DNA of 64,000 nucleotides, from the NCBI GenBank assembly GCA_902522335.1, contig CABYVD010000002.1, forward strand, positions 16,428 through 80,427, written 5' to 3'. How positions within the stretch are numbered: the stretch's first letter is position 1; the number at the start of each line of letters is the position of its first letter. Shown piece by piece: positions 1 through 25,017 of the stretch. Position numbers and translations under genes: made by a program. A model generated the notes under the pieces. The model searched no databases, had not been told where the DNA came from, and saw only the letters and a list, made by a program, of their open reading frames with translations. The stretch comes from Halieaceae bacterium (GTDB taxonomy: Bacteria > Pseudomonadota > Gammaproteobacteria > Pseudomonadales > Halieaceae).

Positions 1-146
1 TCCCGCGATCGAACCCAGACGGTGTCAGCGTTAATGCGCGCTGTCTGAACTTGGACACCGTAGAAGTGATTTACGACAAGCCGTTCGACGGTCGCAGCTG
101 GGAAAAGAACGCGGGCTCACTGGCCCACCTTTCCAAAGAAAGCTAA
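1..146 (+). CDS. GFA/CENP-V family protein (glutathione-dependent formaldehyde-activating-like), 3' part only
   Basis: Manual translation from nt 3: PRSNPDGVSVNARCLNLD...PFDGRSWEKN...*, TAA at 144-146. PRSNPDG.SVNARCL and FDG..WE are typical of GFA/CENP-V C-termini. Truncated by the window edge. Confidence 0.8.
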   Translation, partial: PRSNPDGVSVNARCLNLDTVEVIYDKPFDGRSWEKNAGSLAHLSKES

Positions 147-149
147 AAC

Positions 150-599
150 ATGAATCGCACCGCCGCTTACTGGAATACAACCCCGCTCGAGCAGTTGAAT
201 GCTGAGGAGTGGGAATTATTATGTGATGGGTGCGGTAAATGTTGCCTGCACAAGTTGCAGGATGACGAAACTGATGAGGTATTCTACACGCGAGTCGCTT
301 GTCGACTTCTCGATATGAAGTCCGGCGGTTGCTCAGACTACGTTCACCGATTTTCCAGAGTGCCGGATTGCATGGACGTCAGCAAAATGACCCCAACCGA
401 AATGAAGTGGCTACCATCGAGTTGCGCCTACCGCCTTCGTGCAGAATCAAAACCTTTGCTCGAATGGCACCCGCTAATTAGTGGACATGTCTCAACAGTA
501 TTCAAGGACCCCAACCGCATTCGTGGCCGGGTCATATCGGAAACCGAGGTGCCAGAGGAAAACCTTGAGGATTACATCATCCGATGGATCGATGCCTGA
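150..599 (+). CDS. ycgN: YcgN/UPF0260 family cysteine-cluster protein
   Basis: EWELLCDGCGKCCLHKL...ACRLLD...CSDY..R...VPDC...WLPSSCAYR...WHPLISG is the characteristic YcgN pattern. Confidence 0.9.
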   Translation: MNRTAAYWNTTPLEQLNAEEWELLCDGCGKCCLHKLQDDETDEVFYTRVACRLLDMKSGGCSDYVHRFSRVPDCMDVSKMTPTEMKWLPSSCAYRLRAESKPLLEWHPLISGHVSTVFKDPNRIRGRVISETEVPEENLEDYIIRWIDA

Positions 600-618
600 T
601 CAGGTTTTGGCTGTGTCG

Positions 619-1035
619 CTACGCGGCTGGTGGAGAGTAGTAGCCTAACAATCTAGGGTAGCCGCTCTTTGTTCTACGGCTGAAGCGAGAGTCCCAGGCA
701 TCCCACACCGTGCCATGTCGAATTGCCATCACATGCCGGGGTATGACCGCTATGAAGTGACCATCCCTAGGTATGTCGGGAAGGTAGGCGTTTTTGGTGA
801 GCGTGAGCTCCCAACCTTTGCCCGTGAGGTAGAGGTAATGAACCGGGGTCATCACACCATCCGCAATCGAGGGATAGAGACCGCCTGTCATCTTTTTCTG
901 CAGATAGGACAAGTCTTCTCGAACGTTGTTATAGGACTCACCGGTAATCAAGCAGATCGCACGGACAACGCAGTCCGCGCGGCCACGAAAACCAGCTCCT
1001 TCTCGCCCCCCATCGTGTTGTACAAATTCCAACAC
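619..1035 (-). CDS. Conserved hypothetical protein, DGGR...DCVVRAI family (possible Cys-His-Asp hydrolase)
   Basis: ORF 619..1131. The likely start is GTG at 1035 (VLEFVQHDGGR), with a G-rich RBS-like sequence upstream and no overlap with the divergent gene at 1109. Motifs DCVVRAI and RHVMAI..G.VWDAWDS. Confidence 0.65.
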   Translation of the reverse strand: MLEFVQHDGGREGAGFRGRADCVVRAICLITGESYNNVREDLSYLQKKMTGGLYPSIADGVMTPVHYLYLTGKGWELTLTKNAYLPDIPRDGHFIAVIPRHVMAIRHGTVWDAWDSRFSRRTKSGYPRLLGYYSPPAA

Positions 1036-1108
1036 TGCGCGCGCCCCACCCTGTGTATTAATGTTATTTCGAAATATCATGGTGGCTGGATCAATTTGAG
1101 GTGCTGTT

Positions 1109-2083
1109 GTGACAGTAAATTTTACAGACATTGAGCGCGCCCATCAGCGTATCGCGCACCTCATTACCCGAACACCATTGTTGAACTCGCCTCGGCTCGA
1201 TGCGATTGCCGGTCGGCGTCTTTGGCTAAAAGCGGAACCCTTGCAAGTCACCGGCAGCTTTAAGTTCCGTGGCGCCTGTAGCGCCATCAGTGCGCTGTCG
1301 AGTGAAGCGCTGGATCGAGGTGTCATCGCATACTCGTCGGGCAACCATGCTCAAGGAATCGCGCTCGCCGCAAAGCTGTTTAAGACCCGCGCCACAATCG
1401 TCATGCCTCATGACGCACCCGCTAACAAAGTCGCCAATACACGTGCTTACGGCGCAGACGTCGTTCACTATGAGCGAGGCGTCGAAAGTCGCGAGGACAT
1501 CGGAGCAGACCTGGCGCGAAGACACGGTTTAACGCTCGTGAAACCCTACGATGATCCCGCGGTCATCGCCGGTCAGGGCACCGTAGGTCTGGAGCTCTCC
1601 GAACAAATGGCGGAGCGGAAACTCTCAGTCTCTGCCATCCTATGCTGCTGCGGGGGTGGGGGTTTGAGTGCAGGCATAGCGACCGCCATGGCAGCGACGA
1701 ATCCCGGAATCACCCTGTACACGGCTGAGCCCGAGGGATTCGATGACACTGCTCGCTCATTGTCTCTGGGAGAGCGGGTTGCAAACGAAACCGAGCAAGG
1801 CTCCATCTGCGACGCCATGTTGACCCCGACACCGGGTGAAATTACATTCCCAATCCTTAAAGCACTGGCAGGTGGAGGATTTGCTGTCAGCGACGATCAA
1901 ACACTTCGCGCCATGCGCTACGCTTTCGATGCACTAAAATTGGTCATCGAGCCCGGTGGTGCGGTTGCACTAGCGGCGGCTTTATTCGCAGACAATCTGC
2001 CCTCATCTGATGATCTTGTCGTGATCGTTTCCGGCGGCAATGTGGATGAGGCAACGTTTGCAAAAGCGCTGACTATTAGCTGA
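1109..2083 (+). CDS. PLP-dependent threonine/serine dehydratase (catabolic type, no ACT domain)
   Basis: KAEPLQVTGSFKFRGA (PLP lysine), SSGNHAQG, GQGT, GGGGL, EPGGA, SGGNVD; 324 aa. Confidence 0.9.
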   Translation: MTVNFTDIERAHQRIAHLITRTPLLNSPRLDAIAGRRLWLKAEPLQVTGSFKFRGACSAISALSSEALDRGVIAYSSGNHAQGIALAAKLFKTRATIVMPHDAPANKVANTRAYGADVVHYERGVESREDIGADLARRHGLTLVKPYDDPAVIAGQGTVGLELSEQMAERKLSVSAILCCCGGGGLSAGIATAMAATNPGITLYTAEPEGFDDTARSLSLGERVANETEQGSICDAMLTPTPGEITFPILKALAGGGFAVSDDQTLRAMRYAFDALKLVIEPGGAVALAAALFADNLPSSDDLVVIVSGGNVDEATFAKALTIS

Positions 2084-2291
2084 GTAAATACCTGCTATTC
2101 CCCCTGTGACAAATTACCAAATTCGGTGATCTGCGCCATCTCGTCGACCGTATGTTCAGCGTAATCAAGCGGTGGGGAGAACCGGTGCGCCGGAGCTTGG
2201 TGGAGATTGCGAGTGCGGACATAAGGACAACCGTATTTGCGCCATTTTATCCAGCCCCCTCCGCAGGCGATTTTTCGAGAGGGAGAACACC

Positions 2292-5200
2292 ATGAGCGAT
2301 GACCGTACCTGGGGCGTACTTGCATCTCAGTCAACTGAGGATGCGCTTAGAAATCACATCACAGGCACGGCGGATGAATTTCATGCCGACGTCGCAGCAC
2401 GCGAGATCCATTGGCAGTATCCGTCCTGCGGCGCGTGGCTTGCCCGCGAGGACGGAAACGACTGGGTAGGCTGGAGCTCCCGTGGTGAAGCCACTGGCAT
2501 AGAGGCTGACTGCTGGACGCCTTGGCAGTCCGTTTTAGACGAGTCGGCTGCGCCCTACTACAAGTGGTTTACCGGTGGTCAAACAAATGCCTGTTTCAAC
2601 CTTGTCGATCGTCATCTGCTATTGGGTAGAGCTGACAAGACAGCCATCATTTTTGAGGGTGACCGATGGGATCCCTCAAAAAACAACGGGCGAGGCGGTC
2701 CGGTTACCGAGCAGCATTTCAGCTATCGCAAGGTCTTTGAAGAAATCATTGCGCGCATGCAGGTACTGCGAGACTTGGGCTTGAACAAGGGCGATCGAAT
2801 TGCCTTTAACCTACCCAACATCCCTGAACAGATTTTTTACATGCTGGCAGCGCAGCGGATGGGCGTGGTCTATACACCGGTCTTCGGCGGTTTCTCGGCA
2901 AAAACTCTGTCAGACCGCATTCACGATGCCGGGGCAAAGCTCGTCATCACCGCTGACGGCGGCTATCGAAACGCCGAAGTGGTCGGTTACAAGGGAACCT
3001 ACGCTGACCCAGCCCTCGATAACTACATCCCGAGGGAGACAGCCCTCGCTACGTTAAAAGCGGTATTGGCAACGTATGACCTCGGTGATTTGGCGGACAC
3101 GCTGTACAGCGACGTTAACAGCGCGCTGGCTGGCGAAATAACCCTTGAAAGGTCCGATGTCATGCGCGAACTCGGCGCCTCACTGGCGAGCCAGAACGCG
3201 ATTGCACCAGAGCTGACAGCGGAGTTACGTACGGCAGTGGCCCGACAACTCGCGGACGCCAAACACAACGTAGAGAACGTGATTGTCGTCGAATATACAG
3301 GTCAGGAAGTGGTGGAACATGCGCGAGACAGCTGGTCGAACGACCTCGTTGCCTCTGCAAAAGCCACGATTGCAAAACACCTTGGAGTTAAAGATTTCGA
3401 GACCCTCAGCTCAGAGGAGCCAGCCGCGTTGTGGGCCAAGCTCAATGCAGTCCTGCCTGTTGAGAGCGTTGACTCGAACTTCCCCCTATTCATCATTTAC
3501 ACGTCCGGATCAACGGGCAAACCCAAGGGTGTTGTCCACACGCATGGAAGCTGGCTGAGTGGCGTTAGCCACACCATGCGCACAGTCTTCAACGCCACCG
3601 AAGATGACACGCTCTACGTCATTGGTGATCCAGGCTGGATTACCGGCCAGAGTTATTTGATTGCGGCTCCCCTGGTACAAGGTATGACGACCGTTATTGC
3701 CGAGGGCTCTCCTCTCTTCCCTCATGCCGGTCGTTTCTCGTCGATTATCGAACGCTACAAGGTCACCCTCTTCAAAGCGGGTTCAACATTCCTCAAAGCG
3801 GTCATGACAGACCCTGCAAGTGCTCGGGAAATGGCCGACTTTGACATGTCCTCGCTGCGCGCGGGCACCTTCTGTGCAGAGCCGGTGTCGCCAGCTGTTC
3901 AGCAATTTGCAATGGACAACATCTGCAAGCACTACATCAACTCGTACTGGGCGACCGAGCACGGCGGCATCGTATTTAGTTGCCCCTGGGGCGGCTACAA
4001 GCCCCTCGCAGCTGATGCTAAGACATGGCCTCTCCCCTGGGTTCAAGCTGAAGTTCGCGTAGCCGAAACTACCGCGGATGACGGCACCGTAACGGTGTGG
4101 CGCACTGCGGAATCGGGCGAGAAAGGTGAGCTGGTCATCACGCAGCCCTATCCTTACCTGGCACGAACGCTCTGGGGCGACGCAGACAACCTGTTTGAAG
4201 ATAGCTGGCGCGGGGATATCGACCGTTTCAGTGAGGTCTACTTCAACCGCTGGGACGGTGAGCTGACCTACACTCAGGGAGACTATGCGCGTCAGCACGA
4301 TGATGGCGCATTTACCCTGCACGGTCGCTCTGATGACGTGATCAACGTATCAGGCCACCGAATCGGCACCGAAGAAATCGAAGGCGCCATCTTGCGCGAC
4401 AAGACCCTGCGCGAAGACTCCCCTGTGGGTAACGTTGTGGTCGTGGGTGCACCGCACGATGAAAAAGGCGAGACGCCGGTCGCATTTTTGGTGGCAGCTG
4501 CAGGTCGAAAGCTCTCCGATGACGATTTAGCGCGACTGCAATCTCTGGTCCGATCGGAAAAAGGCGCTACCGCCGTGCCGTCCGACTTCTTAGTTGTATC
4601 AGCGTTTCCGGAGACACGCTCCGGTAAATACATGCGCCGAACGCTTCGCTCCATCCTGCTTGATCAACCACTCGGCGATATCTCCACGCTCAAAAATCCT
4701 GAATCCGTTGAGGAGATCCGGACAGCCGTCGCCCAGTGGAAGGACTTCGGCCGATTGACTGAGGCAAGACGCGTCGTTCAGACATGGCGTTATCTGCGTG
4801 TCGAAACTCATGAGGTCGCACCGGGTCACTTGGTGGCCTTGGTTGTGATTAGCAGTCCTCCCGTAAACGCATTGAGTGAGCGAACGCTCGACGAGCTTCA
4901 CACGGCACTGACACAGCTCGCTCACCAGGACGATCTATCCGCCATGGTTGTGACAGGTGCGCGGAATACCTTCGTTGCGGGCGCGGACGTAAAAGAGTTA
5001 CTCAAGATTGGCGAGAAAGGTGACTTAGAGTCTGCTCAAACACTGCCAAATGCGGCTCAGACAGCCTTCTCAACACTCGAGAACCTCGATATCCCGATTA
5101 TTGCGGCCGTTAACGGACCCGCGCTAGGTGGCGGTAACGAATTGGTACTTGCCTGTTCGCACGTCATTGCAGCCAAGCACGCCGAATTCGGCCAACCAGA

Positions 5201-7703
5201 GATCAACCTGAACCTCCTCCCCGGTTACGGTGGTACACAGCGTCTGACGCGTAAGCTCTATGACGCCCACGGTGTGGATGGTGCAGCTCAGGCCCTGCGC
5301 ATGATGCTCGATGGCCGTACGATTGATGCCGATACCGCACTTAAGATTGGCCTCATCGACGACATTGTGACCACGGAAGGCCTCTCCACTGTCGAAGCAG
5401 CCATGGCTGCCCTACGGGACCATTTTGCCGGTGGCGACGCGCTGAAAATGTCTATGGCACGGCGTAAAAAACTGAAAGACCAGCGAGAGCAGTCCGTCGG
5501 GATTGACGAATCACTGTTGAATCACCCGGGTGTTGCTTTAGCGCTCAAACAGATTCGCGCGAGTGGCCGTAACAAGCCAGTGGACTTCATCATTGATGCG
5601 ATGCTTACCGGTGCCCGCGATGGCCAGGCAGCGGGTCTGCGCCGTGAGGCCGAGTTATTTGCACAAGGTGTCTGTGATCCTGAATGCGGCCCCAATGGCA
5701 TCTCAGCATTCCTGGAAAAGCGCAGTGCACCGCTGCCACCCAAACCCAAGGCTGTGCAACCTGACGCCTCGGCAGAGGAGCGTGCAGCGCTCATCGAAGA
5801 TAGCAAGTTGCTTCCCATGGGCGCTAGCTTCTTCCCTGGCATCACTCCCATACCCGAGTACCAACTTGGTTATGGCGTGATGCGATCACACGAGGACGGG
5901 AGGCCGCTACACGGTGATCCTGTGGTTGCGGAAAAAGAGCTGGTCTTCCCTACTCCCACACCGGGTCCTAACGAGGCGCTAGTCTACATTCTCGCGTCTG
6001 AGATGAACTTCAATGATATCTGGGCAATCACAGGTATCCCTGTCTCTCCTTTCGATGCGCGTGATGCTGATGTACAGGTCACTGGTTCAGGTGGTGTCGG
6101 CATGGTGGCGCAGTTGGGTCAGGACCTTGTCCATGAAGGCCGTCTGTCCGTGGGTGATATTGTGAGTATCTACTCGGGTCAGAGCGAATTAATGGCGCCT
6201 GATCAGGGCTTGGATCCTATGGCGGCGGATTTCCGCATCCAGGGATACGAGCGAAACGACGGTAGTCATGCTCAGTTCCTGACGGTCCAAGGACCGCAGT
6301 TACACGCGAAACTGCCTGGCTTGAGCATTGAAGAAGCCGGTTCTTACGGCCTGACCATGGGTACAATTCATCGTGCGCTTTACAACACACTTGCTATCGA
6401 GCCAGGAAAGCGCCTGTTTGTCGAGGGTGCTTCAACGGGTACCGGCTATGACTGCCTGCGAAGCGCACTTTCCTCGAGTTGTGCCGCGTTGGGTATGGTC
6501 TCTAGTGACAGCCGTGGCGAGCGTGTCGAGGCGGTTGGCGGCCATGCCATCAACCGAAAAGACGATCGATGGGCTGATATCTTCACTGCCGTTCCTGATG
6601 ACCCAAGCGAGTGGGCCGCATGGGAAGCAGCCGGTGAGGCGTTCGTCGCCGAGGCTGAGAAGAAAGTTGGCGGTCAAATCGACTACTCGGTTTCTCACGC
6701 CGGCGAAACCGCCTTCCCACGATCATTCCAGCTACTCGGTGAAGACGGCGTACTTACCTTCTACGGTGCGTCGTCCGGTTATCGCTTCACCTTTATGGGT
6801 AAAGCTGGGGCTTCTACTCCAGCTGCGCAATTCTCAAAAGCCGGATTGCGAGCGGGTCAGTCATTGCTCGTCGTGTACGGCCCTGGTGCCGAGGACGGAA
6901 TCGTCGACCCAGTTGCTATCGAAGCCATCGAGGTCGGTTGTCAGCGCGGTGCGCAGGTAGCTGTTCTCGTTGATACGGTCTCTCAGCGAGAGTTTGTTTC
7001 CTCCCTTGGCTTTGGCGCACAGATGAAAGGTGTGGTCAGTATCGAGGAAATCGAACGTCGCCTCGGCGATGACTTCGATCCACCCGGACCCTTCCAGCAG
7101 ATGCCGAATCCTTTCACGGAATCAGCGGCATTCAAGGAATCTGTGCGGGCCTTCTCGGACCGAACACTCAAGCCTATTGGCTCTGCGATCGCTCCCTTGT
7201 TGCGCAACACGCTCGACAAGCGCGGACTTCCGGACGTCGTTTTTGAGCGCGCAGGACGCGACGGACTTTCACTTGCCACATCACTGGTTAAACCCAATGT
7301 TGGCAAGATCGTCTACTCGGAGGACCTCAAGGGCTCACGCTTCAGTTTCTATGCACCTCAAGTATGGATGCGCCAGCGTCGAATCTTGATGCCAACCGCA
7401 GAGATTCGCGGTACGCACCTCAATACATCACGCGAGTTTGCGGAGATGCAGGAACGTATTGCCGCGGGACACATCAATATTCTCCCTCCGACAATCATCC
7501 CCATGGAAGACGTACCAGAGGCACACCAAGCTATGTGGGAAAACCGGCATGCAGGCGCTAATTACGTTGCCATGCACGCGTTACCACGAACCAACCTCAA
7601 GTCACGGGACGAGTTGTACCGCGCTTGGGCTATCCGCGACGCAATGGAGCGTGGCGAGACACTTACGAAAGTAGAAACAGGATCAGCAGGAGCACTCCGA
7701 TGA
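2292..7703 (+). CDS. pcs: Trifunctional propionyl-CoA synthase (3-hydroxypropionyl-CoA synthetase + dehydratase + acryloyl-CoA reductase)
   Basis: ATG 2292 follows GGGAGA. Domain order is acyl-CoA synthetase (YTSGSTGKPKG, YWATEHGG, GRSDDVINVSGHRIG, PETRSGKYMRR), crotonase (FVAGADVKE, GGGNEL, FGQPEINLNLLPGYGGTQRL), then a Ccr-like MDR reductase (EMNFNDIWA, GYERNDGS, EGASTGTG, GTHLN). Size (~1800 aa) and order match Pcs. Confidence 0.95.
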   Translation: MSDDRTWGVLASQSTEDALRNHITGTADEFHADVAAREIHWQYPSCGAWLAREDGNDWVGWSSRGEATGIEADCWTPWQSVLDESAAPYYKWFTGGQTNACFNLVDRHLLLGRADKTAIIFEGDRWDPSKNNGRGGPVTEQHFSYRKVFEEIIARMQVLRDLGLNKGDRIAFNLPNIPEQIFYMLAAQRMGVVYTPVFGGFSAKTLSDRIHDAGAKLVITADGGYRNAEVVGYKGTYADPALDNYIPRETALATLKAVLATYDLGDLADTLYSDVNSALAGEITLERSDVMRELGASLASQNAIAPELTAELRTAVARQLADAKHNVENVIVVEYTGQEVVEHARDSWSNDLVASAKATIAKHLGVKDFETLSSEEPAALWAKLNAVLPVESVDSNFPLFIIYTSGSTGKPKGVVHTHGSWLSGVSHTMRTVFNATEDDTLYVIGDPGWITGQSYLIAAPLVQGMTTVIAEGSPLFPHAGRFSSIIERYKVTLFKAGSTFLKAVMTDPASAREMADFDMSSLRAGTFCAEPVSPAVQQFAMDNICKHYINSYWATEHGGIVFSCPWGGYKPLAADAKTWPLPWVQAEVRVAETTADDGTVTVWRTAESGEKGELVITQPYPYLARTLWGDADNLFEDSWRGDIDRFSEVYFNRWDGELTYTQGDYARQHDDGAFTLHGRSDDVINVSGHRIGTEEIEGAILRDKTLREDSPVGNVVVVGAPHDEKGETPVAFLVAAAGRKLSDDDLARLQSLVRSEKGATAVPSDFLVVSAFPETRSGKYMRRTLRSILLDQPLGDISTLKNPESVEEIRTAVAQWKDFGRLTEARRVVQTWRYLRVETHEVAPGHLVALVVISSPPVNALSERTLDELHTALTQLAHQDDLSAMVVTGARNTFVAGADVKELLKIGEKGDLESAQTLPNAAQTAFSTLENLDIPIIAAVNGPALGGGNELVLACSHVIAAKHAEFGQPEINLNLLPGYGGTQRLTRKLYDAHGVDGAAQALRMMLDGRTIDADTALKIGLIDDIVTTEGLSTVEAAMAALRDHFAGGDALKMSMARRKKLKDQREQSVGIDESLLNHPGVALALKQIRASGRNKPVDFIIDAMLTGARDGQAAGLRREAELFAQGVCDPECGPNGISAFLEKRSAPLPPKPKAVQPDASAEERAALIEDSKLLPMGASFFPGITPIPEYQLGYGVMRSHEDGRPLHGDPVVAEKELVFPTPTPGPNEALVYILASEMNFNDIWAITGIPVSPFDARDADVQVTGSGGVGMVAQLGQDLVHEGRLSVGDIVSIYSGQSELMAPDQGLDPMAADFRIQGYERNDGSHAQFLTVQGPQLHAKLPGLSIEEAGSYGLTMGTIHRALYNTLAIEPGKRLFVEGASTGTGYDCLRSALSSSCAALGMVSSDSRGERVEAVGGHAINRKDDRWADIFTAVPDDPSEWAAWEAAGEAFVAEAEKKVGGQIDYSVSHAGETAFPRSFQLLGEDGVLTFYGASSGYRFTFMGKAGASTPAAQFSKAGLRAGQSLLVVYGPGAEDGIVDPVAIEAIEVGCQRGAQVAVLVDTVSQREFVSSLGFGAQMKGVVSIEEIERRLGDDFDPPGPFQQMPNPFTESAAFKESVRAFSDRTLKPIGSAIAPLLRNTLDKRGLPDVVFERAGRDGLSLATSLVKPNVGKIVYSEDLKGSRFSFYAPQVWMRQRRILMPTAEIRGTHLNTSREFAEMQERIAAGHINILPPTIIPMEDVPEAHQAMWENRHAGANYVAMHALPRTNLKSRDELYRAWAIRDAMERGETLTKVETGSAGALR

Positions 7704-10700
7704 ATGATATGAGCGATATTCCCCAGGATCTGCTGACGCAGTCCATCGCTGGGCGTCGACTCGACAACAAATGCATCATCCTGACCGGTGCCGCCGGCTC
7801 CATTGGTAGCTATATCACTCGGCAATTACTGCGCGAGGGCGCGCGGGTCATGCTGACAGGTCGTGATCAGGGCAAACTTGATGACTTCATGGGCGACTTA
7901 GTCGATGAAGGATTCGAGGAAACCTTCATGGTCAGCGCGACAGGTGATTGCGCGGATCCTGAGGTCTGCCGACAGATTGTGGCAAAAACAGTTGCCGCCT
8001 TCGGTCCGATCGATGTGTTGGTCAATAACGCCGGTGCTGCAGGTCCTAAGTTCACGCTTCGCGACATCCCGTTTACCGAGGCAGAGCAACGCGCAGCTGA
8101 TTCCGACCAAACAATGTTCGATTCGGCGATGAATCTTTTGGGTGCGCCTTGGAATATGGCGCGTGCTGCGGCTCCGCATATGTCGGCGGGTGGCAGCATC
8201 ATCAACGTATCGACCATCTTCTCAAGAACGCATTACTACGGCCGTATTCCTTACGTGGTACCGAAGTCGGGGCTGAATGCACTGGGCAAAGGCTTAGCGC
8301 TCGAGCTGGGCGAGAAGCAAGGCATTCGAGTCAATACTCTCTTCCCTGGCCCCATCGAGTCAGAGCGCATTGAAAGCGTATTTGCGCGAATGGATGAACT
8401 TCAGGGCGTCGAGCCAGGTAGCACGGGTAAAGAGTTCCGCGACCTGATGATTACGACCCGAACATCGGACGGTGGACTGGAGTACAAGTACCCGACACCC
8501 ACCGACGTTGCATCCGGCATTGTCTGGCTTGCGTCTGATGAGTCATCTGCGCTCTCAGGACACCACATTGAAGTCACTAACGGTATGCAAGTACCTGCGC
8601 AAAGTCGATCTCAGCTTGTATCGTGGCCCGATAAGCGACTCGAGGATCTCTCGGGTCAGGTTGTGCTCATTCTGGGTGGCGATGACTACCAAGAGGCAGT
8701 CACCTTTGCGGAACGCCAGATCCAAAGTGGCGCCCGTGTCATGCTGGCCTTCCGAAATCTGAATACGGTCGGTCACGCCCGCTCATTACTACAGGCTCGA
8801 AACCTTGATGACGTTCAGCTATCACACCTAGACCCCCTTCGCAGGGAGTCGGTAGATCGCTCAATGCAGTTGATGTCGGATCATTTCGGTCGGTTAGACG
8901 GGGTGATTCTGCTGCCGCAAAAGCCTAACGGTGAGTACGGTTATTCCTTGTGTACTGCGAATGATGAGGATGTAGCGAACTTTGTCCGTGACGAGGTGGT
9001 AGCACCTGTGGCCTTCGCATCGAGCTTCGCTCGAAACATGGATCGCCTGTTTGCAGACGGCGAGCCACCCGCGATTGTCTACGTCACAAACCCATCTGAT
9101 CGTCACGGTAATCTAATGAACGAAATCATCCGCGCCTCAGTCGAAGCACTGATTCGTGGCTGGCGTCACGAGGACGAGACACTGGCAAACGCCGGCGATC
9201 TCACATGGGCTGTTCAGCCCAACCAGATGGTGCGCTACGACACCGAGGACGAAGAGGCATTAACCTTCGCCGCCGATTGGGCAGCAACGCTGACCAACCG
9301 CGTCCGTAAAATGGATTCGATTAATCTGTGGTTACCCCGCAGTATCAAGCGTTCGACGGGTAAGAGCTCAATGCCGTCCTCTATCTCGCGTGTACTACCG
9401 GGATTACACAAAGGTCGCACCGCGGTCATCACCGGAGGCAGCCTAGGCATTGGTCTGCAACTGGGTCGTTTCCTTGCGATTGCAGGTGCGCGCGTACTTC
9501 TGAGCGCACGAAGCGAAGGCAAGCTCGCGGAAGCTCGAGATGAGATTGTCGACGAGCTGCGCAATATTGGTTATCCAAGACCCGAAAGCCGCGTCACCAT
9601 CTTGGGCGGCATCGATGTCGGTGATCCCGATGCACTCGATCGACTTCACGCCCACGCGGTCGCGGAGCTTGGCCATGTCGACTTCCTGATCAACAACGCC
9701 GGTATTTCAGGCGCTGAAGAGATGGTTGTTGATATGACGCGTGCCGATTGGGATCGCACCATGGAAGCCAACCTCATTTCAAACTACTCGTTGATACGTA
9801 AATTCAGCCCAGCAATGAAGGCGGGTGGTAGAGGTTCCATCTTGAACGTATCGAGCTACTTTGGTGGCGAAAAATACGTGGCTGTGGCCTACCCCAACCG
9901 AGCAGATTATGCCGTGTCAAAGGCGGGTCAGCGGGTGCTGGCAGAAATTCTGTCGCGGCACCTCGGACCGGAGATTCAGATTAACGCGCTGGCTCCCGGT
10001 CCCGTTGACGGTGCTCGCTTGCGCGGCTCTGCCGAGGCGCCCGGGTTATTTGACCGTCGCGGACTGCTGGTCCTTGAGAACAAGCGGTTAAATGAGGTTC
10101 ATAAGGCCATTCTGGCCGGCATGTCGAGTGGTTTCAGTGCAGATGATGTAATGACGCTTGCAAGTAACGCAGTGGACGGTATTGATATCGATGCACTGCC
10201 AAAGCCAATCGCGCGTCTCGTACTGAAGATCCGTGACTCGGGTGGCCTTGGAAACTCATCCAACTACCTCATGCATACGGGCATCGCAGAGAAACTGATG
10301 ACGCGGCTTGTTCGCGCGGGCATTCTGAGCGATGAGCAGCGCGAGCAGTTCCTTGGAACTTTCGTTGATGCGCCGGCGCCCTTCTTTGAATTCGCCGAGA
10401 CGTCAAAGCAGGCGGAGCAGATTGAAACGGGTATTTTGAACCGTCTTCACCTGCATAAGATGCCAACCGATGAGCAGGTGGGACTGTCAACAGTATTCCA
10501 TCTTGCGGACGACATCGTCAGTGGCGAGACCTTCCACCCCTCCGGCGGCCTGAAGTTCGATCGCTCGGTTACAGAGGGTGAATTGCTGTTGCCCCCTAAC
10601 GAGAGCGAGATTGCGAAACTGCAGGGTAAGCGCATCGTCCTGATTGGCGATTCGATGAAAAACGAGCTTGCCAATATTGCTAATGGTTTCTTGGCTCAAA

Positions 10701-11350
10701 ACGTTGAGAAGCTCTGGGTACTCACGAAGACTGAAGACGCCGCGAATGCCATGAAGCACAGCGTCGACAACCCCAATGGGATTAATGTCGAGTGCCGAGC
10801 CATTGGCGATGAGCTCGAATCCAGTTTGGATGACATTCTCCGCAATGAGGGCGGCTACGATGTTGTGGTTAGCAGTCCGTTTGAGCGTTTACCCCTAAAT
10901 GCGCTTGCAGCTAACGCAAACGAGCCCTGGGATCGCGTTCTTAGCGACGATGAGTTCAGAAAGCTGGTGCATGATCAGCTCACGCATCACTTCCGTGTGG
11001 CACGCACATCTGCATTGGTGCCGAATTGTCAGATCGTTTTGATTACGCCTGACACGTCGCTTGCATCGACACGTGAAGAATTTGCTTTGGCCTTGTTTGT
11101 GAAGAACTCGCTACACGCTTTCACAGTGACATTGGGTGTTGAGGGAGAGCGTTTACCGACGGTCCCAGCCATTAACCAGGTTCAGTTGACGCGACGGGCG
11201 CATACCGAAGAGCCGTCAAACGATCAGGAACTAGCAGAAGAAATGACGCGTTTGGTGCATGCGGTGCTTCAGTGCTCCGTACCCGCGCCAACGCCATCTG
11301 ATAGTCGTTATCTGTCGAAGATCTTCCGTGGTAATGCAGTAACGGTGTAG
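7700..11350 (+). CDS. mcr: Bifunctional malonyl-CoA reductase (Chloroflexus type)
   Basis: ATG 7700 overlaps the pcs TGA (ATGA), with AGGAG at 7688. 1216 aa of tandem SDR modules: TGAAGSIG/NNAG/YYGRIPYVVPK and TGGSLGIG/NNAGISG/YPNRADYAVSK, plus SGETFHPSGG and a C-terminal RGNAVTV, as in Chloroflexus-type MCR. Confidence 0.93.
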   Translation: MNDMSDIPQDLLTQSIAGRRLDNKCIILTGAAGSIGSYITRQLLREGARVMLTGRDQGKLDDFMGDLVDEGFEETFMVSATGDCADPEVCRQIVAKTVAAFGPIDVLVNNAGAAGPKFTLRDIPFTEAEQRAADSDQTMFDSAMNLLGAPWNMARAAAPHMSAGGSIINVSTIFSRTHYYGRIPYVVPKSGLNALGKGLALELGEKQGIRVNTLFPGPIESERIESVFARMDELQGVEPGSTGKEFRDLMITTRTSDGGLEYKYPTPTDVASGIVWLASDESSALSGHHIEVTNGMQVPAQSRSQLVSWPDKRLEDLSGQVVLILGGDDYQEAVTFAERQIQSGARVMLAFRNLNTVGHARSLLQARNLDDVQLSHLDPLRRESVDRSMQLMSDHFGRLDGVILLPQKPNGEYGYSLCTANDEDVANFVRDEVVAPVAFASSFARNMDRLFADGEPPAIVYVTNPSDRHGNLMNEIIRASVEALIRGWRHEDETLANAGDLTWAVQPNQMVRYDTEDEEALTFAADWAATLTNRVRKMDSINLWLPRSIKRSTGKSSMPSSISRVLPGLHKGRTAVITGGSLGIGLQLGRFLAIAGARVLLSARSEGKLAEARDEIVDELRNIGYPRPESRVTILGGIDVGDPDALDRLHAHAVAELGHVDFLINNAGISGAEEMVVDMTRADWDRTMEANLISNYSLIRKFSPAMKAGGRGSILNVSSYFGGEKYVAVAYPNRADYAVSKAGQRVLAEILSRHLGPEIQINALAPGPVDGARLRGSAEAPGLFDRRGLLVLENKRLNEVHKAILAGMSSGFSADDVMTLASNAVDGIDIDALPKPIARLVLKIRDSGGLGNSSNYLMHTGIAEKLMTRLVRAGILSDEQREQFLGTFVDAPAPFFEFAETSKQAEQIETGILNRLHLHKMPTDEQVGLSTVFHLADDIVSGETFHPSGGLKFDRSVTEGELLLPPNESEIAKLQGKRIVLIGDSMKNELANIANGFLAQNVEKLWVLTKTEDAANAMKHSVDNPNGINVECRAIGDELESSLDDILRNEGGYDVVVSSPFERLPLNALAANANEPWDRVLSDDEFRKLVHDQLTHHFRVARTSALVPNCQIVLITPDTSLASTREEFALALFVKNSLHAFTVTLGVEGERLPTVPAINQVQLTRRAHTEEPSNDQELAEEMTRLVHAVLQCSVPAPTPSDSRYLSKIFRGNAVTV

Positions 11351-11370
11351 CTCTGGGCAGGGTGATCACC

Positions 11371-11399
11371 AAAACCGGGGCACTGCCCCGGTTTTTTTT
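11371..11399 (+). terminator. Rho-independent terminator of pcs-mcr
   Basis: AAAACCGGGGCACTGCCCCGGTTTTTTTT: GC-rich hairpin followed by a T-tract, 20 nt after the mcr stop. Confidence 0.9.
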
Positions 11400-11485
11400 G
11401 CCCAGCTTGTTCTTGTCACTTTCCTTTGCACGCTCGCTAGATACTGAGTAGTCTCGGCAAAAGCTAATAACAAAAGAACAGGCTT

Positions 11486-12934
11486 ATGACAGACAGCGGC
11501 ACTGCGCTCCCGTTTAGTACGAAATTCCTATACGGATTCGGTTCGATTGCCTACGGGATTAAAGACAACGCGTTCGCCTATTTCCTGCTATTTGTTTACG
11601 TTCAAGTCTTCGGTCTTGCCCCTGATCTTGCCGGTCTGGCCATCCTGATCATGCTGATCTTCGATGCCATCTCCGATCCACTGATTGGCTATATTTCCGA
11701 TAACACCAAGTCGCGCTGGGGCCGCAGACACCCGTTTATCTACGGATCCATCATCCCCGTATCGCTGACGTTCTTTCTGATTTGGGACCCTCCCACTGCC
11801 GCCTCCGATCAAGTGCTTTTCTGGTACCTGCTGGTAATGGGTATTGGTATACGAACCACCATTACCCTTTACGAAATACCCAGCACGGCGCTGGGTCCTG
11901 AATTGACTCAGGACTATGTTGAGCGCAGCTCTCTGATCGCGTTCAGGGCCTGGTTTGGCTGGTGGGGCGGGCTCACCATGTGGAATCTGCTTTGGGTCTT
12001 TGTCGTCTACAGCAGCGCCAACGGTACGCAAGACGCTCGCTATGTGCCAGAGACCTGGGTGGTTTATGGCATTGGCTGCAGTATTGTCATGGCCACTGCC
12101 ATACTGGTAACAGGCGTGGGGACGCATAAACACATCCCACATCTCCACATACCAGATGAAGTTGAGAAGGAGAGCAAAAGCAAGCAGGTAAAGACGGTAC
12201 TGAAAGACATATGGCTCACACTGAATGTCAGCCGTAACTACCGCATACTGTTCATTGCTTACATCGTTTGCAAAGCTGCCTCGGGGCTATTTACCAACCT
12301 AACGCTCTTCTACTACAGCTATTACTGGGAACTGGAGCCTTCGGACATTCTCACCATTGGCTTGAGTCTGTTTCTTGCTCCGGTGCTCGGTCTAAAACTC
12401 GCGCCCATGTGCAGCGGCCTATTTGGCAAACGAAATACGGCTATTGGCTTTTTCGCGGCTTCCATGGTGCTAGAAAATGCGTTAATTCTGCTGCGCGTTC
12501 TAGATCTGCTGCCCTCCAATGACTCACCTTTGATATTGGCCTGTGTTCTCGCCTGTCACTTTGCTGCTGTCGCTTGCATCATTGTGGCTGGAACGGCGGT
12601 GGGCTCGATGGTCTTTGACACGGTGGAGGAAGTGGAGACCGCCACCAACAAGCGCATGGAGGGAACGCTATTGGCGGCGCGTTCGTTTGCTGAAAAGTGC
12701 ATGGCAGGGGCTGGTGCGTTTTCTGCAGGCCTCATTCTGAGCTTTGCGGCGTGGCCTGAAGACGCCAAGCCTGGCCTCGTATCACAAGCGACACTCGACA
12801 CGGTGGGCATCTACACGGTCATTGCATCGACGGCGCTCTGGTTACTGGGTCTCTTTTTCATCGGCAAAGTTCGTGAAAACAAGGAGGCGCACGCTGAACG
12901 CCTCTCAGGGCTTGCGGCCAAAGGTGCCCAGTAG
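11486..12934 (+). CDS. MFS transporter, glycoside-pentoside-hexuronide (MelB-like) family
   Basis: DAISDPLIGYISDNTKSRWGRRHPF, YEIPSTALGPELTQDYVERS, about 12 hydrophobic segments. Confidence 0.85.
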   Translation: MTDSGTALPFSTKFLYGFGSIAYGIKDNAFAYFLLFVYVQVFGLAPDLAGLAILIMLIFDAISDPLIGYISDNTKSRWGRRHPFIYGSIIPVSLTFFLIWDPPTAASDQVLFWYLLVMGIGIRTTITLYEIPSTALGPELTQDYVERSSLIAFRAWFGWWGGLTMWNLLWVFVVYSSANGTQDARYVPETWVVYGIGCSIVMATAILVTGVGTHKHIPHLHIPDEVEKESKSKQVKTVLKDIWLTLNVSRNYRILFIAYIVCKAASGLFTNLTLFYYSYYWELEPSDILTIGLSLFLAPVLGLKLAPMCSGLFGKRNTAIGFFAASMVLENALILLRVLDLLPSNDSPLILACVLACHFAAVACIIVAGTAVGSMVFDTVEEVETATNKRMEGTLLAARSFAEKCMAGAGAFSAGLILSFAAWPEDAKPGLVSQATLDTVGIYTVIASTALWLLGLFFIGKVRENKEAHAERLSGLAAKGAQ

Positions 12935-13026
12935 AATCTCACGGGCACCATGGATTTGCTGACACGATCACGACATGATTAAAGCCTCGCTCACTCCCCT
13001 GTAGGAATACGATAGGACACGCTTTT

Positions 13027-14307
13027 ATGAAATCTCTTAAATCCCTGCTTGTTGCTACTGGCTGTGCGGTATTACTGCCCATGCACTCGCTAGCGGCAGA
13101 CGTGACCGCAAAAATCGATGCCGTAATGCCAAAGGTTGTCGAATGGCGACGCGATTTTCACCAACACCCCGAACTCAGTAATCAGGAATTTCGGACGGCA
13201 AAAATTGTCGCCGATCACTTACGATCTCTGGGTATGGAGGTTGAGACTGAGGTGGCTCACACCGGTGTGGTTGGGACACTGCGCGGAGGCGACGGCCCAG
13301 TCGTTGCTTTGCGCGCCGATATGGATGGACTGCCTGTCACCGAATTAGTTGACCTCCCGTTTGCATCAAAAGCACGAGGTGTCTACCAGGGTCGCGAAGT
13401 CGGGGTCATGCACGCCTGCGGCCATGACAATCACGTGGCTATTTTGATGGGCGTAGCCGAGGTCCTCGCTGGTATGGGCGATGATTTACCTGGGACAGTT
13501 AAATTCATATTCCAACCGGCAGAAGAAGGCACGCCGGACGGGTCAGTTGGCGGCGCGGAGCTCATGCTCATTGAAGGCGCGTTTGAGAATCCGCGGCCCG
13601 ATGTCGTGTTCGGGCTACACGTGTTTCCATTTCCGGTCGGCACCATTGCAACACGCCCTGGCGGACTCATGGCTTCATCAGATCGCCATCAAATCACCAT
13701 CAAAGGCAAACAGACACACGGCGCTGTGCCCTGGGCGGGCGTCGACCCCATTGTGACGGCCAGCCAAGTCGTCCTGGGACTTCAAACCATCGTCTCACGA
13801 CAACTAGATGCCACATTAACGCCCTCCATCGTTACCATCGGACGGGTTAAGGGCGGTGTACGCAACAACATCATCCCCGAATCAGTAGAACTTGAGGGCA
13901 CCATCAGGACCTTTGATGCTGAAACCCGTATCGATATTCACAAGCGGATTAGGCGCACAGCCACCAATATTGCTGAAGCTGCAGGCGCAACAGCCGATGT
14001 TGTGATTGATCAGGGGTATGGCGTCACTCGCAATGATCCCAATCTCTTTCAACAAATGTCGCCCACGCTGGAGCGCGTCGCGGGTGATCGCTTCATCGAA
14101 GCCTCGCAAACCACAACAGCCGAGGATTTCTCCTTCTTCGCCAATGAAGTACCGGGCCTCTTCTTGTTCTTGGGGGTCGCACCTGACGATCCGACCTTGA
14201 TCTATCCCAACCACTCGCCTCGCTTCTATGCAGACGAACGGGCGCTCCCGGTGGGTGTCGAGGCACTGACCTCAATGACTTTGGACTACATGATGTCCGA
14301 GCCGTAA
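13027..14307 (+). CDS. M20D family amidohydrolase with N-terminal signal peptide
   Basis: WRRDFHQHPELS, LRADMDGLP, MHACGHD, FQPAEEG, GVRNNIIP, AEDFSFF, PNHSPRF; Sec-type signal ending ...SLA-A. Confidence 0.9.
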   Translation: MKSLKSLLVATGCAVLLPMHSLAADVTAKIDAVMPKVVEWRRDFHQHPELSNQEFRTAKIVADHLRSLGMEVETEVAHTGVVGTLRGGDGPVVALRADMDGLPVTELVDLPFASKARGVYQGREVGVMHACGHDNHVAILMGVAEVLAGMGDDLPGTVKFIFQPAEEGTPDGSVGGAELMLIEGAFENPRPDVVFGLHVFPFPVGTIATRPGGLMASSDRHQITIKGKQTHGAVPWAGVDPIVTASQVVLGLQTIVSRQLDATLTPSIVTIGRVKGGVRNNIIPESVELEGTIRTFDAETRIDIHKRIRRTATNIAEAAGATADVVIDQGYGVTRNDPNLFQQMSPTLERVAGDRFIEASQTTTAEDFSFFANEVPGLFLFLGVAPDDPTLIYPNHSPRFYADERALPVGVEALTSMTLDYMMSEP

Positions 14308-14328
14308 CCGCTCGAGAGTAAACTCGGG

Positions 14329-15864
14329 CTAAAAGGCGTCTCGAAGCTGCCGTTTTAGGATCTTTCCGATGTCGCTTCGAGGCAGCTCATCCATAAAGGT
14401 GACGCCGGCAATGGCCTGAATGGCGCTCAGCCGTTTGTTCGCATCGAGCCTGATGTCTTCCTCGGCGCGCTCACTGTCAGCGCGCCTGACTACGAACGCC
14501 CATGGGGTTTCACCCCAGTCCTCCGAAGGTTTAGCCACTACCGCTGACTCAACCACATCCGGCATGGCGTTCAGGGCCTGCTCCAGGTCGGTGGCGTAAA
14601 TATTCTGACCCCCCGACAGAATCATGTCCTTGATTCTGTCACTCAAAAACAACCAGCCATCCTCGTCGAGGTAACCCACATCGCCTGATCGATAGAAAAG
14701 CCTACCCTGCTCATCGAACCAGTGCATCGCCTTGGTGGCCTCCTCACGATTGAGATAGCCATCACTCATGATGCCCGCGCGCCCAACAATTTCGCCCGAC
14801 TCGTTGGGTCCCAGTAATTCACCGTTTTCGCCCAGAATTTTCAATTCGTTCCCAGGCTGTACCTGACCTACCGAACCCAACTTACCTAGCTCTGCGGCTT
14901 TCCGCGCTATTAAGGTTGTAGCGACACCGCCCTCGGTTAAACCGTAGAACTCCAGTAACTGTGCACTCGTATCCGCCAGAATCTTCTCTTTCATGACGGC
15001 TGATAGTGGTGCACTGGTAGAGAACAGCCACTTCACACTTTTCCAGTTATCCGGTGAATGATTGGGCGAAGCCCACATGCGTTGGTACTGCACAGGCACG
15101 AGCATGGCATGGGTGATCGCGTAGTCGCGAATCAACTCGTTTGCGCGCTCCGCGTTGAACTTGCGCATGATGACCTGTGTTGCACCCACCCACACCGAGG
15201 GCCACCAGGTCGTGATTGTGGTGTTTGAGTATAGGGGCGTACTCGTAAGAACGACACCACCCTCAAACTCCATCTTTTCAGTGCCAGAAATGAGAAGATT
15301 GCGCGCGAGATGGCTGTGAATGATGCCCTTGGGGATGCCGGTCGTCCCGGAGCTGTAGAGAATATCGTATTCCTCGTCGAGCGCCATGTGGACATTCGGT
15401 GAGCTAGCATCAAAGGTATTGGCCCACGCCGTATGATCATGAAATTGCTCGCAAGCCGTCTCCAACGCAAATCTTAGATCCGCCCTGATCGAGGAGATGT
15501 CCATGAAGTGCTCAAGCGCTGCATTGCGGTATTGATCTGAGACAAACAGGCCCTTTACCGCGCTGTCGAGCAGCATATTTCTCTGCGCCTCTGGTGTCGC
15601 CGTGTTTGGGACAGGCACCATGCTCGCACCCGAGCACAAGATACCTGTCATCACCTCTGCACACTCGACGCTGTTGCGCGATAGGACGGCTACGCGATCA
15701 CCTTTACCAATGCCGGCTGCAATGAGTCCGTTAGCGATACGAAAAACGTGATCAATACTACTTTTATTGTCGCGCATGACGCCGTCAATGATATAGGCCA
15801 GCCGCGCAGGCTGATTCGTCCTACGGCTATCAAGTCGTTCACAAAGCGATAGGGTCGGGGTCAC
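14329..15864 (-). CDS. Class I adenylate-forming enzyme (acyl-CoA ligase)
   Basis: YSSGTTGIPKG, FYGLTEGG, SGDVG, DRIKDMILSGG, LPRSDIGKILK. Likely start is GTG 15864 after GAGG; the ORF-track start at 16071 overlaps the psiE-like gene. Confidence 0.88.
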   Translation of the reverse strand: MTPTLSLCERLDSRRTNQPARLAYIIDGVMRDNKSSIDHVFRIANGLIAAGIGKGDRVAVLSRNSVECAEVMTGILCSGASMVPVPNTATPEAQRNMLLDSAVKGLFVSDQYRNAALEHFMDISSIRADLRFALETACEQFHDHTAWANTFDASSPNVHMALDEEYDILYSSGTTGIPKGIIHSHLARNLLISGTEKMEFEGGVVLTSTPLYSNTTITTWWPSVWVGATQVIMRKFNAERANELIRDYAITHAMLVPVQYQRMWASPNHSPDNWKSVKWLFSTSAPLSAVMKEKILADTSAQLLEFYGLTEGGVATTLIARKAAELGKLGSVGQVQPGNELKILGENGELLGPNESGEIVGRAGIMSDGYLNREEATKAMHWFDEQGRLFYRSGDVGYLDEDGWLFLSDRIKDMILSGGQNIYATDLEQALNAMPDVVESAVVAKPSEDWGETPWAFVVRRADSERAEEDIRLDANKRLSAIQAIAGVTFMDELPRSDIGKILKRQLRDAF

Positions 15865-16028
15865 GATGGAGTACCTCACAAAACAGTTGTCTAAGGATCT
15901 ATCTACCCAATGGAAGATACCAAAGATTTGATTGTCTAACAGGCTATAAAAAACGCCCAAAAAGACTGAACGGACCTGAATTTTGGTCCGTAAAACCTTT
16001 TGAAGCAGCGGGTTTTGGGCAACACGCC

Positions 16029-16457
16029 ATGGAACAGCACGAAAATAAAGAAGGCAACACGCAAGAGTCAAAATTCATTGATCGGTTTGACGACGTGGTA
16101 TTGGGGCTTTTTGCCTTTGCCGAACGAGGACTGCTTCTACTGATTGGTGCATTAGCGATCGTCGCGGTTGGGTTCGAATTAGGCGCCTTACTGGTCAACC
16201 GCGATATTAATCTTGCTGATCTGCTGTTACTCTTTATCTACCTCGAGGTGCTTGGCATGGCCTTCGCCTACTACTCGACCCACAGTGTGCCCGTTACCTT
16301 ACCCGTGTTGATTGCAATTACAGGCATTACACGACTGATTCTACTTAGCAAAGATTCAGAGCCAAGTGAGTTGATGTACGAGGCCGGCGCCGTGTTGTTG
16401 CTGGCAATTGCCTATGGTGCGTTGTCCTGGGCATCGAACTTCTTCAAACGCAAATAA
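16029..16457 (+). CDS. PsiE-family membrane protein
   Basis: LADLLLLFIYLEV.GM...Y...VPVTLPVLIAITGITRLILL; 4 TM segments. Confidence 0.85.
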   Translation: MEQHENKEGNTQESKFIDRFDDVVLGLFAFAERGLLLLIGALAIVAVGFELGALLVNRDINLADLLLLFIYLEVLGMAFAYYSTHSVPVTLPVLIAITGITRLILLSKDSEPSELMYEAGAVLLLAIAYGALSWASNFFKRK

Positions 16458-16507
16458 AGCTGGCGCCCTGACTTCTCGTCAGGTTTGATCCTCGTCTATC
16501 ATGGCGT

Positions 16508-17347
16508 ATGCATCTTCGTCGCCATCGTATTAGAGTCTTGACGGTAAACGTTTTCTTGAGAGTCCTCGCTCTCTTCGTTGTGTCATTGCCGGTACAGGCT
16601 ATTTCAGAACCAGTCAGCTTTGGCGACGTACTGCAGCTCCCTGTCAAAGAAGTCGCTCAGACACTGGCTTATGGAAGCTCACCACAGAATACGGTCGTCA
16701 ATATCAGAGGATCAGACTCATCGCGAGGTGTTGTCACCCTGATCCACGGCGGCTGTTGGTCCAACGCCTACGACCGGAATCACGCTTTGCCTATGGCCGA
16801 GGCGCTTTCAACCATGGGCTACGATGTTTGGGTGCCTGAGTATCGGCGAGTGGGTGATGAAAGTGGCGGTTGGCCCGGCAGCTTAGAAGACATCATCGCG
16901 GCGGTTGAGTTCGTAACCGATAAAACAGGACAGCAACCCATCCTCGTAGGCCATTCTGCCGGTGGGCACCTGGCCTTGCGCGCTGCCCAGACGAGTGTGG
17001 CGATTGACGGTGTGGTGGGCTTAGCGCCCATCACTGACCTTGTGTCTTATGGCGCAGAGTCAGGGAGTTGTCAGTCGATGGTTGCCCCTTTTATGGGTGA
17101 CGAGACTTATTCTCCGGATGATTCCTATCGAGATGCTTCAGTGACTCTGCACGCTATCAATGTTCCCGTGTCTGTCGTGATTGGCAAAGAAGACCCCATC
17201 GTCGGAGCAAATCAGGTAGCGGCTTTCGACAGTGGGCAGATAATCACGGTTAAAGGTGCCGGGCATTTTGATGTCATACATCCCAAAACCGAGGCATTTA
17301 GCGCTGTTACGAACGCGCTCGAAGCAATCAAGGAGAAAGGTCACTGA
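16508..17347 (+). CDS. Alpha/beta hydrolase (HGGxW, GHSAGG), candidate kynurenine formamidase or esterase
   Basis: IHGGCW, EYRRVG...GGWP, GHSAGGHLAL, D(PIV), AGHFD. Start uncertain; hydrophobic N-terminus ending VQA. Ends 4 nt before kynU. Confidence 0.8.
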   Translation: MHLRRHRIRVLTVNVFLRVLALFVVSLPVQAISEPVSFGDVLQLPVKEVAQTLAYGSSPQNTVVNIRGSDSSRGVVTLIHGGCWSNAYDRNHALPMAEALSTMGYDVWVPEYRRVGDESGGWPGSLEDIIAAVEFVTDKTGQQPILVGHSAGGHLALRAAQTSVAIDGVVGLAPITDLVSYGAESGSCQSMVAPFMGDETYSPDDSYRDASVTLHAINVPVSVVIGKEDPIVGANQVAAFDSGQIITVKGAGHFDVIHPKTEAFSAVTNALEAIKEKGH

Positions 17348-17351
17348 GCTC

Positions 17352-19057: not shown

Positions 19058-19124
19058 CTCAGCTGGATAGAGTACCTGACTACGAATCAGGCGGTCGTAC
19101 GTTCGAATCGTACCGGGCGCGCCA
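19048..19124 (+). tRNA. tRNA-Arg(ACG)
   Basis: 77 nt. Acceptor stem GCGCCCG/CGGGCGC, D-arm TAGCTCAGCTGGATAGAG, anticodon arm CCTGA-CTACGAA-TCAGG, T-loop GTTCGAATC, encoded CCA. Confidence 0.97.
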
Positions 19125-19125
19125 T

Positions 19126-19166
19126 ATACAAAAAAGCCTCATCTATTGGATGGGGCTTTTTTGTAT
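19126..19166. terminator. Bidirectional intrinsic terminator after tRNA-Arg
   Basis: ATACAAAAAAGCCTCATC-TATTG-GATGGGGCTTTTTTGTAT inverted repeat with A and T tracts, between the tRNA and a convergent gene. Confidence 0.85.
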
Positions 19167-19227
19167 CCGGTGGTCTTCGTAGATATTCGGGGTGCTGCGA
19201 GGCCAACTGAAGCCATTCAGTTTGAGC

Positions 19228-24849: not shown

Positions 24850-25017
24850 CAACCCAATCGCTTCGATTCATTTTCGATAAGCAGATCCATTTTCTTTGCC
24901 GTTAGTCCGACAAGTGGATGACGAAACAAAAGATTTTGGGCAGACTTCCGGCTCATTTGTTAGCGGCGCTACGAAGCGCTGTAATCTTTGACTCGAGAGA
25001 GATTAAAAGGATTGTTC

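Follow-up and report, generated by a model that had tools for sequence, protein, structure and literature searches.

How do OM60/NOR5 bacteria couple light to carbon? Luminiphilus and other members of this group are among the most abundant aerobic phototrophs of coastal waters, and the locus described here may bear on that question. It lies in a 64-kb stretch of DNA from a Halieaceae bacterium (hereafter the window), part of contig C2 of a metagenome-assembled genome (MAG) of 1.86 Mb in 78 contigs that is 61% complete. The locus consists of two genes, pcs and mcr, for propionyl-CoA synthase and malonyl-CoA reductase. Our tentative reading is that pcs–mcr may be an accessory module of bacteriochlorophyll (BChl) phototrophy and not the leftover of an autotrophic cycle: a light-driven route by which aerobic phototrophs save carbon and consume reductant. 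It draws on a distribution in which the pair is kept almost only with a type-II reaction centre in Halieaceae, Woeseiaceae, Wenzhouxiangellaceae and Myxococcota and, within Halieaceae, never with RuBisCO.

Both enzymes are full-length

Mcr converts malonyl-CoA, at the cost of two NADPH, to 3-hydroxypropionate. Within a single protein, Pcs then activates 3-hydroxypropionate (ATP to AMP), removes water and uses one NADPH for the reduction to propionyl-CoA.

In the mcr product, Pfam recognises two adh_short blocks, and residues 19–1216 align with the full-length malonyl-CoA reductase structures 8HI4 (1019 bits) and 8HJW (951 bits). Mutagenesis of the Roseiflexus enzyme (RfxMCR) identified as essential T165, Y172, R175, Y178 and K182, together with S731, Y743, R746, Y749, K753, R785, L795 and R799 (PMC10470521); in the first short-chain dehydrogenase/reductase domain (SDR1), a Thr-Tyr-Lys triad is accompanied by a Tyr and an Arg that hold malonate semialdehyde (PMC10470521). 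The counterparts in the window protein are identical and aligned without gaps, both in SDR1 (T172, Y179, R182, Y185 and K189) and in SDR3 with the extra domain (S719, Y731, R734, Y737, K741, R773, L783 and R787); the comparison covered these three domains. At the level of sequence, Mcr is thus confirmed as a bifunctional reductase that would take malonyl-CoA through malonate semialdehyde to 3-hydroxypropionate.

The Pfam domains of Pcs follow the order AMP-binding, ECH_1 and ADH_N/ADH_zinc_N, which places a ligase, an enoyl-CoA hydratase and an enoyl reductase in one chain of about 1800 residues; residues 18–1790 align with the propionyl-CoA synthase structure 6EQO at 1854 bits. Motifs at residues 403, 775, 946, 967 and 1379 correspond to YTSGSTGKPKG and TRSGK of the adenylation part, GGGNE and GQPE of the crotonase part, and a glycine-rich site for NADPH. 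Of these, the first four recur in 56–58 of 58 orthologues, as motifs generic to their families and not a structure-based residue list. Domains, alignment and motifs confirm Pcs as a predicted 3-hydroxypropionate-CoA ligase, 3-hydroxypropionyl-CoA dehydratase and acrylyl-CoA reductase.

An initial annotation of this DNA had named the same two enzymes, described both genes as full-length and coupled by an ATGA overlap, and placed a strong terminator behind them. All of this holds: the identities through Pfam domains and end-to-end structure matches, and the operon through the table of open reading frames (ORFs), the raw sequence and RNA folding. Neither pcs nor mcr contains an internal stop codon.

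A stand-alone cassette in a phototrophic host

The window's MAG carries pufL and pufM on contig C20, adjoined by two nitrogenase-like BChl reductase genes of the bchY/Z type. Its Mcr has relatives in 305 species genomes, and those with the highest identity (91–100%) are Halieaceae and Luminiphilus MAGs; identity is 75% to HTCC2080 and 67–68% to NOR5-3, L. syltensis, C. halotolerans and P. rubra. Because of these photosynthesis genes and of its closest relatives, HTCC2080 included, we assign the host to the aerobic anoxygenic photoheterotrophs: it is an uncultured, Luminiphilus-type member of Halieaceae (OM60/NOR5) within the HTCC2080 genus. The initial annotation had called the organism apparently heterotrophic, while proposing a genome search for pufLM and bch genes. 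With both present on C20 that description has to be dropped, and the host joins the marine aerobic photoheterotrophs that the same annotation had cited as a known case. No RuBisCO was found in the MAG or in 20 further members of the genus (0 of 21 genus genomes).

Absences in a MAG of 61% completeness carry little weight. Two references are 100% complete: the same-species genome G002 (identical with G121), whose Mcr is 100% identical to that of the window, and G003 (identical with G065). The HpcH/CitE family (PF03328), which includes malyl-CoA lyase, has no match in G001–G003 or in G111. One HpcH-family gene does occur in the window's MAG, on contig C62, and was rejected as a malyl-CoA lyase: it is an HpaI-type aldolase adjoining HpaH and HpaG homologues in an hpa aromatic-cleavage cluster. 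The HTCC2080 match was rejected likewise, being CitE/RipC-like and scoring 75 bits against a cut-off of 500. What the complete 3-hydroxypropionate bi-cycle would require here, a lyase for malyl-CoA, beta-methylmalyl-CoA or citramalyl-CoA, was therefore not found, and without a malyl-CoA lyase-type gene the bi-cycle cannot close in this lineage. The pair is stand-alone, as first proposed, in the MAG and in the complete same-species genome alike.

The pair is kept as a unit

Where a related locus extends far enough upstream, pcs is in nearly all cases the gene immediately before mcr. Most lineages, from Halieaceae to Woeseiaceae, share the 4-nt overlap, while their flanking genes are not the same; the unit under selection thus appears to be the pair itself, leading from malonyl-CoA to propionyl-CoA. 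We considered the neighbouring genes as functional partners and rejected them, since across lineages only pcs and mcr are common. Those flanking the window's operon (YcgN, a PALP dehydratase, an MFS_2 symporter and an M20 amidohydrolase) accompany the cassette only in the subclade with Mcr identity of at least 91%. In gene order, overlap, a puf- and bch-bearing host and the lack of RuBisCO, the locus matches the stand-alone pcs–mcr cassette of aerobic anoxygenic phototrophs.

In the Mcr tree all Halieaceae fall in one well-supported clade, with the window inside a 16-row Luminiphilus subclade; the sister clade comprises Woeseiaceae, Wenzhouxiangellaceae and Myxococcota. In one single-contig member of the genus, mcr is found in two adjoining pieces covering residues 1–765 and 764–1216 in different frames (G084:C1:2880158-2883804), which suggests that this copy is frameshifted or decaying.

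mcr occurs with phototrophy genes and apart from RuBisCO

An even draw of 200 Halieaceae species gave 52 genomes with mcr and 65 with pufLM. Both were present in 49 genomes, mcr without puf in 3, puf without mcr in 16, and neither in 132. The three genomes with mcr alone are fragmented MAGs, 81–95% complete, and all have BchNB/YZ-type genes, so that every mcr carrier (52/52) possesses phototrophy genes. The pattern is repeated within genera: only 4 of 21 genomes of genus g4 are puf-positive, and they include both of its mcr carriers; in genus g24 all 10 mcr carriers fall among the 15 puf-positive genomes. Physical linkage does not explain the pairing, as the two loci are 40–216 kb apart where they share a contig. 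Carriers outside the sample, labelled Lentisalinibacter, Woeseiaceae, Wenzhouxiangella, Lysobacterales, Ca. Azophilus, Polyangiaceae, Myxococcota or unclassified, have pufLM in 12 of 13 cases.

True RuBisCO was detected in only 3 of the 200 genomes, all puf-positive and mcr-negative, and in 0 of the 49 that carry both puf and mcr. These three phototrophic Halieaceae, G071, G085 and G176, encode a form-I-like RuBisCO large subunit (459–467 bits); they are possibly photoautotrophs, or use the Calvin–Benson–Bassham cycle for redox balancing, in a family usually called photoheterotrophic.

RNA-library contigs from four marine or aquatic studies span nearly all of the operon at 92–100% identity, and two of them bridge the pcs/mcr junction. 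They give a weak indication that the operon is transcribed. In runs X1 and X3 the operon is covered more deeply than its flanks, a weak hint only, as contig depth cannot rank genes.

A proposed role in light-linked co-assimilation

From gene content and co-occurrence we propose that the cassette serves light-linked co-assimilation, saving carbon while consuming ATP and NADPH; we regard this as moderately probable. The propionyl-CoA made by Mcr and Pcs would feed a housekeeping route of acetyl-CoA carboxylase, propionyl-CoA carboxylase, epimerase and B12 mutase, with the net conversion of acetyl-CoA, two HCO3-, three NADPH and about four ATP equivalents to succinyl-CoA. The cassette would be active when light gives surplus ATP and the pyridine-nucleotide pool is reduced, and it would build C4 units from acetyl units without carbon loss while disposing of reducing power. 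It would not constitute an autotrophic cycle; in other phototrophs the same job falls to the Calvin cycle or the ethylmalonyl-CoA pathway. Use in the light is suggested by the restriction to phototrophs, by the exclusion of RuBisCO and by the alphaproteobacterial phototroph Porphyrobacter ULC335, in which expression of 3-hydroxypropionate bicycle genes rises by day and a role in CO2 co-assimilation has likewise been proposed (PMC10674011).

The genes for the remaining steps are present, as the downstream route to succinyl-CoA sketched in the initial annotation demands. Contig C28 of the window's MAG holds pccA (cut by the contig end), methylmalonyl-CoA epimerase, the mutase (1281 bits, cut-off 876) and MeaB, and in the same-species genome a PccB-type carboxyltransferase stands in front of this pccA-epimerase-mcm-meaB cluster. 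Methylmalonyl-CoA mutase is a core gene of the family (195 of 200 Halieaceae genomes), and accA- and accD-type genes are present as well. Of the possible competing sinks, ccr is nearly absent (1 of the 200), and RuBisCO is missing from all genomes with both puf and mcr. The same annotation had offered the module as an alternative to the glyoxylate shunt. It may stand as an added route and fails as a replacement, since the window's MAG has a long-type isocitrate lyase and 17 of 20 genus members have malate synthase G.

Several observations weigh against a light-linked module. As a glyoxylate shunt is present, growth on acetate does not depend on the cassette. Phototrophy does not require it either: 16 of the 65 puf-positive genomes lack mcr, four of them single-contig. 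The Fisher p of 7e-29 for mcr against puf is uncorrected for shared ancestry and overstated, relatives not being independent; the Mcr tree is largely vertical inside Halieaceae, and independent gains and losses are modest in number. One locus, L080 in the Pseudomonadales MAG bin.308 (G231, 2.6 Mb), has pcs–mcr without pufLM or any BchNB/YZ-type gene; either the MAG is incomplete or this carrier is truly non-phototrophic. No conserved regulatory motif emerged upstream of pcs. The PpsR-type pattern TGT-N12-ACA lies within 350 nt upstream of pcs in 1 of 58 loci, which is not the window, and was rejected; a common upstream motif was rejected too, as the last 110 nt before pcs share only a ribosome-binding site across 30 lineages. 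Finally, the RNA-library contigs could reflect carry-over of DNA.

A pure redox valve would fit the restriction to phototrophs and the mutual exclusion of mcr and RuBisCO equally well. In such a valve three NADPH are burnt per malonyl-CoA so that the quinone and NAD(P) pools stay oxidised enough for cyclic photosynthetic electron flow, with carbon gained only in passing and propionyl-CoA re-oxidised. In L. syltensis, C. halotolerans and P. rubra, all of which carry mcr with pcs directly upstream, pigment production depends on how reduced the substrate is (PMC3666943). Obligate aerobes, on the other hand, can pass electrons to O2, and with some four ATP equivalents spent and a tricarboxylic acid cycle intermediate as end product, carbon gain is hard to avoid. 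Genomic data do not separate a valve from co-assimilation; we hold a pure valve to be rather unlikely.

A catabolic role is less likely than light-linked co-assimilation, and in our estimate improbable: Pcs would assimilate external 3-hydroxypropionate or acrylate, for example from cleavage of dimethylsulfoniopropionate (DMSP), and Mcr would run in reverse or handle malonate semialdehyde from the breakdown of beta-alanine or uracil. Pcs alone does take free 3-hydroxypropionate, and the habitat is DMSP-rich marine surface water. The gene 3' of mcr, beyond the terminator, encodes an MFS_2/GPH-type symporter (11486–12934), and two other Luminiphilus lineages (L033 and L073) have counterparts 35–36% identical to it close to mcr and on the other strand; this recurrence may be chance or may mark a substrate transporter. 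The symporter itself is conserved, like the other flanking genes, only in the subclade with the closest Mcr. Uptake would need pcs only, yet mcr is translationally coupled to it across lineages, and the restriction to BChl phototrophs would be left unexplained. The DMSP/acrylate route suggested at first gained no support: no cupin DMSP lyase scored above cut-off in 21 genus genomes, DddP and DddD not having been searched.

That the operon is half of a complete autotrophic 3-hydroxypropionate bi-cycle with its other genes elsewhere in an incomplete genome, a thought prompted by the 61% completeness of the MAG and by full sets proposed for some Burkholderiales and Gemmatimonadota MAGs (PMC9802188), is scarcely credible given the lyase search in the complete genomes and the nature of the C62 and HTCC2080 matches.

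Relation to known systems and meaning

The cassette itself is already known from Erythrobacter NAP1; the window contributes a further species. Erythrobacter sp. NAP1 and Porphyrobacter (structures 6EQO and, for PdMCR, 6K8S-6K8W) have the same two enzymes in the same order in a phototroph without the full bi-cycle; the C-terminal half of the window's Mcr matches PdMCR at 551 bits. Those hosts are alphaproteobacterial, whereas that of the window is gammaproteobacterial. In the window mcr is followed by the symporter gene and not by accA. Closer still are the cultured OM60/NOR5 strains HTCC2080, NOR5-3, Luminiphilus syltensis NOR5-1B, Chromatocurvus halotolerans and Pseudohaliea rubra, BChl a-containing aerobes of the same family with the same cassette and largely the same overlap, whose Mcr and Pcs are 67–75% and 67–69% identical to those of the window; the latter differs in belonging to an uncultured species of the HTCC2080 genus with its own flanking genes. 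NOR5-type strains were reportedly already listed as carriers by Zarzycki and Fuchs in 2011 (Appl Environ Microbiol 77:6181).

The enzymes of Chloroflexus aurantiacus and Roseiflexus castenholzii (8HJW, 8HI4) share domain architecture and catalytic residues with those of the window. They serve a complete autotrophic bi-cycle (mcl, mch, mct, meh, smtAB), whereas its second half was not found in the window lineage. In Chloroflexus, mcr and pcs are unlinked (Caur_2614 and Caur_0613; PMC3150298), whereas here they form a coupled operon. A genomics paper on Halieaceae from 2023 does not mention the cassette (PMC10100682), and a preprint of 2026 still calls its role in aerobic phototrophs open.

Should light-linked co-assimilation be right, an acetyl unit and two bicarbonates would be turned into a C4 acid on light-derived ATP, with a higher carbon yield and an unaccounted CO2 sink. 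As an accessory module of phototrophy, the pair could also explain some of the light-stimulated, dark-type uptake of CO2 that has been reported in marine photoheterotrophs. The useful results at this stage are the correction of the host's lifestyle from heterotroph to phototroph and, in the Halieaceae sample, the very tight link of mcr with phototrophy and never with RuBisCO; this pattern is testable in strains already in culture.

Boundaries of the operon

The features of the operon are collected in Table 1. The ORF table and the raw sequence agree on the start of pcs (ATG at 2292) and its stop (TGA, 7701–7703), and on the start (ATG at 7700) and stop codon (11348–11350) of mcr.

Table 1 Features of the pcs–mcr operon in window coordinates
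Feature	Position	Strand	Evidence or remarks
Leader/intergenic region 5' of pcs	2084..2291	+	Shine-Dalgarno GAGGGAGAA at 2279-2287
pcs, trifunctional propionyl-CoA synthase (predicted), 1803 aa	2292..7703	+	Pfam domains, 6EQO match, family motifs
ATGA overlap of pcs stop and mcr start	7700..7703	+	Raw sequence; translational coupling
mcr, bifunctional malonyl-CoA reductase (predicted), 1216 aa, four tandem SDR domains	7700..11350	+	8HI4/8HJW matches, catalytic residues
Intrinsic terminator	11371..11399	+	A4, 7-bp GC stem, 3-nt loop, T8

In the terminator, the A4 run is followed by a stem-loop with the letters CCGGGGC / ACT / GCCCCGG and by T8, hairpin and T8 together spanning 11375–11399. A consensus terminator scan missed this hairpin, but it is clear by folding: a 55-nt stretch gives -31.1 kcal/mol against -17.1 +/- 2.9 in shuffled sequences (z -4.8).

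Upstream of pcs, a short stem between CUCC (2259–2262) and GGAG (2282–2285) could mask the Shine-Dalgarno sequence. It is kept in 8 close relatives with no covariation, and its consensus energy is only -6 kcal/mol. The consensus scan found no sigma-70 promoter in 2084–2291. A riboswitch or other known RNA 5' of pcs was rejected, as Rfam returned a single tRNA over positions 1–20000.

Other genes of the window

Most of the other window ORFs of at least 140 aa were compared with Pfam or NCBIfam. No carboxylase, HpcH/CitE-type lyase, class III CoA-transferase or MaoC hydratase was found among the ORFs scanned, and for these the early statement that the 64 kb hold no partner gene of the bi-cycle is upheld. 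Besides the four flanking genes named above, the products include acyl-CoA ligases, kynureninase, transporters, a thiolase, a crotonase, an RND pump, a TonB receptor, peptidases, glutathione S-transferases, a sulfatase and regulators.

Three further observations concern single loci. A 541-aa ORF (19228–20853, minus strand) has no Pfam or NCBIfam match. The tRNA gene (19048–19121, plus strand; Rfam, 64.6 bits) sits at the very end of a phosphoribosyltransferase ORF (18557–19057). At 24988–26388 (plus strand), a single chain fuses rubredoxin to a rubredoxin reductase with an Rbx_binding domain.

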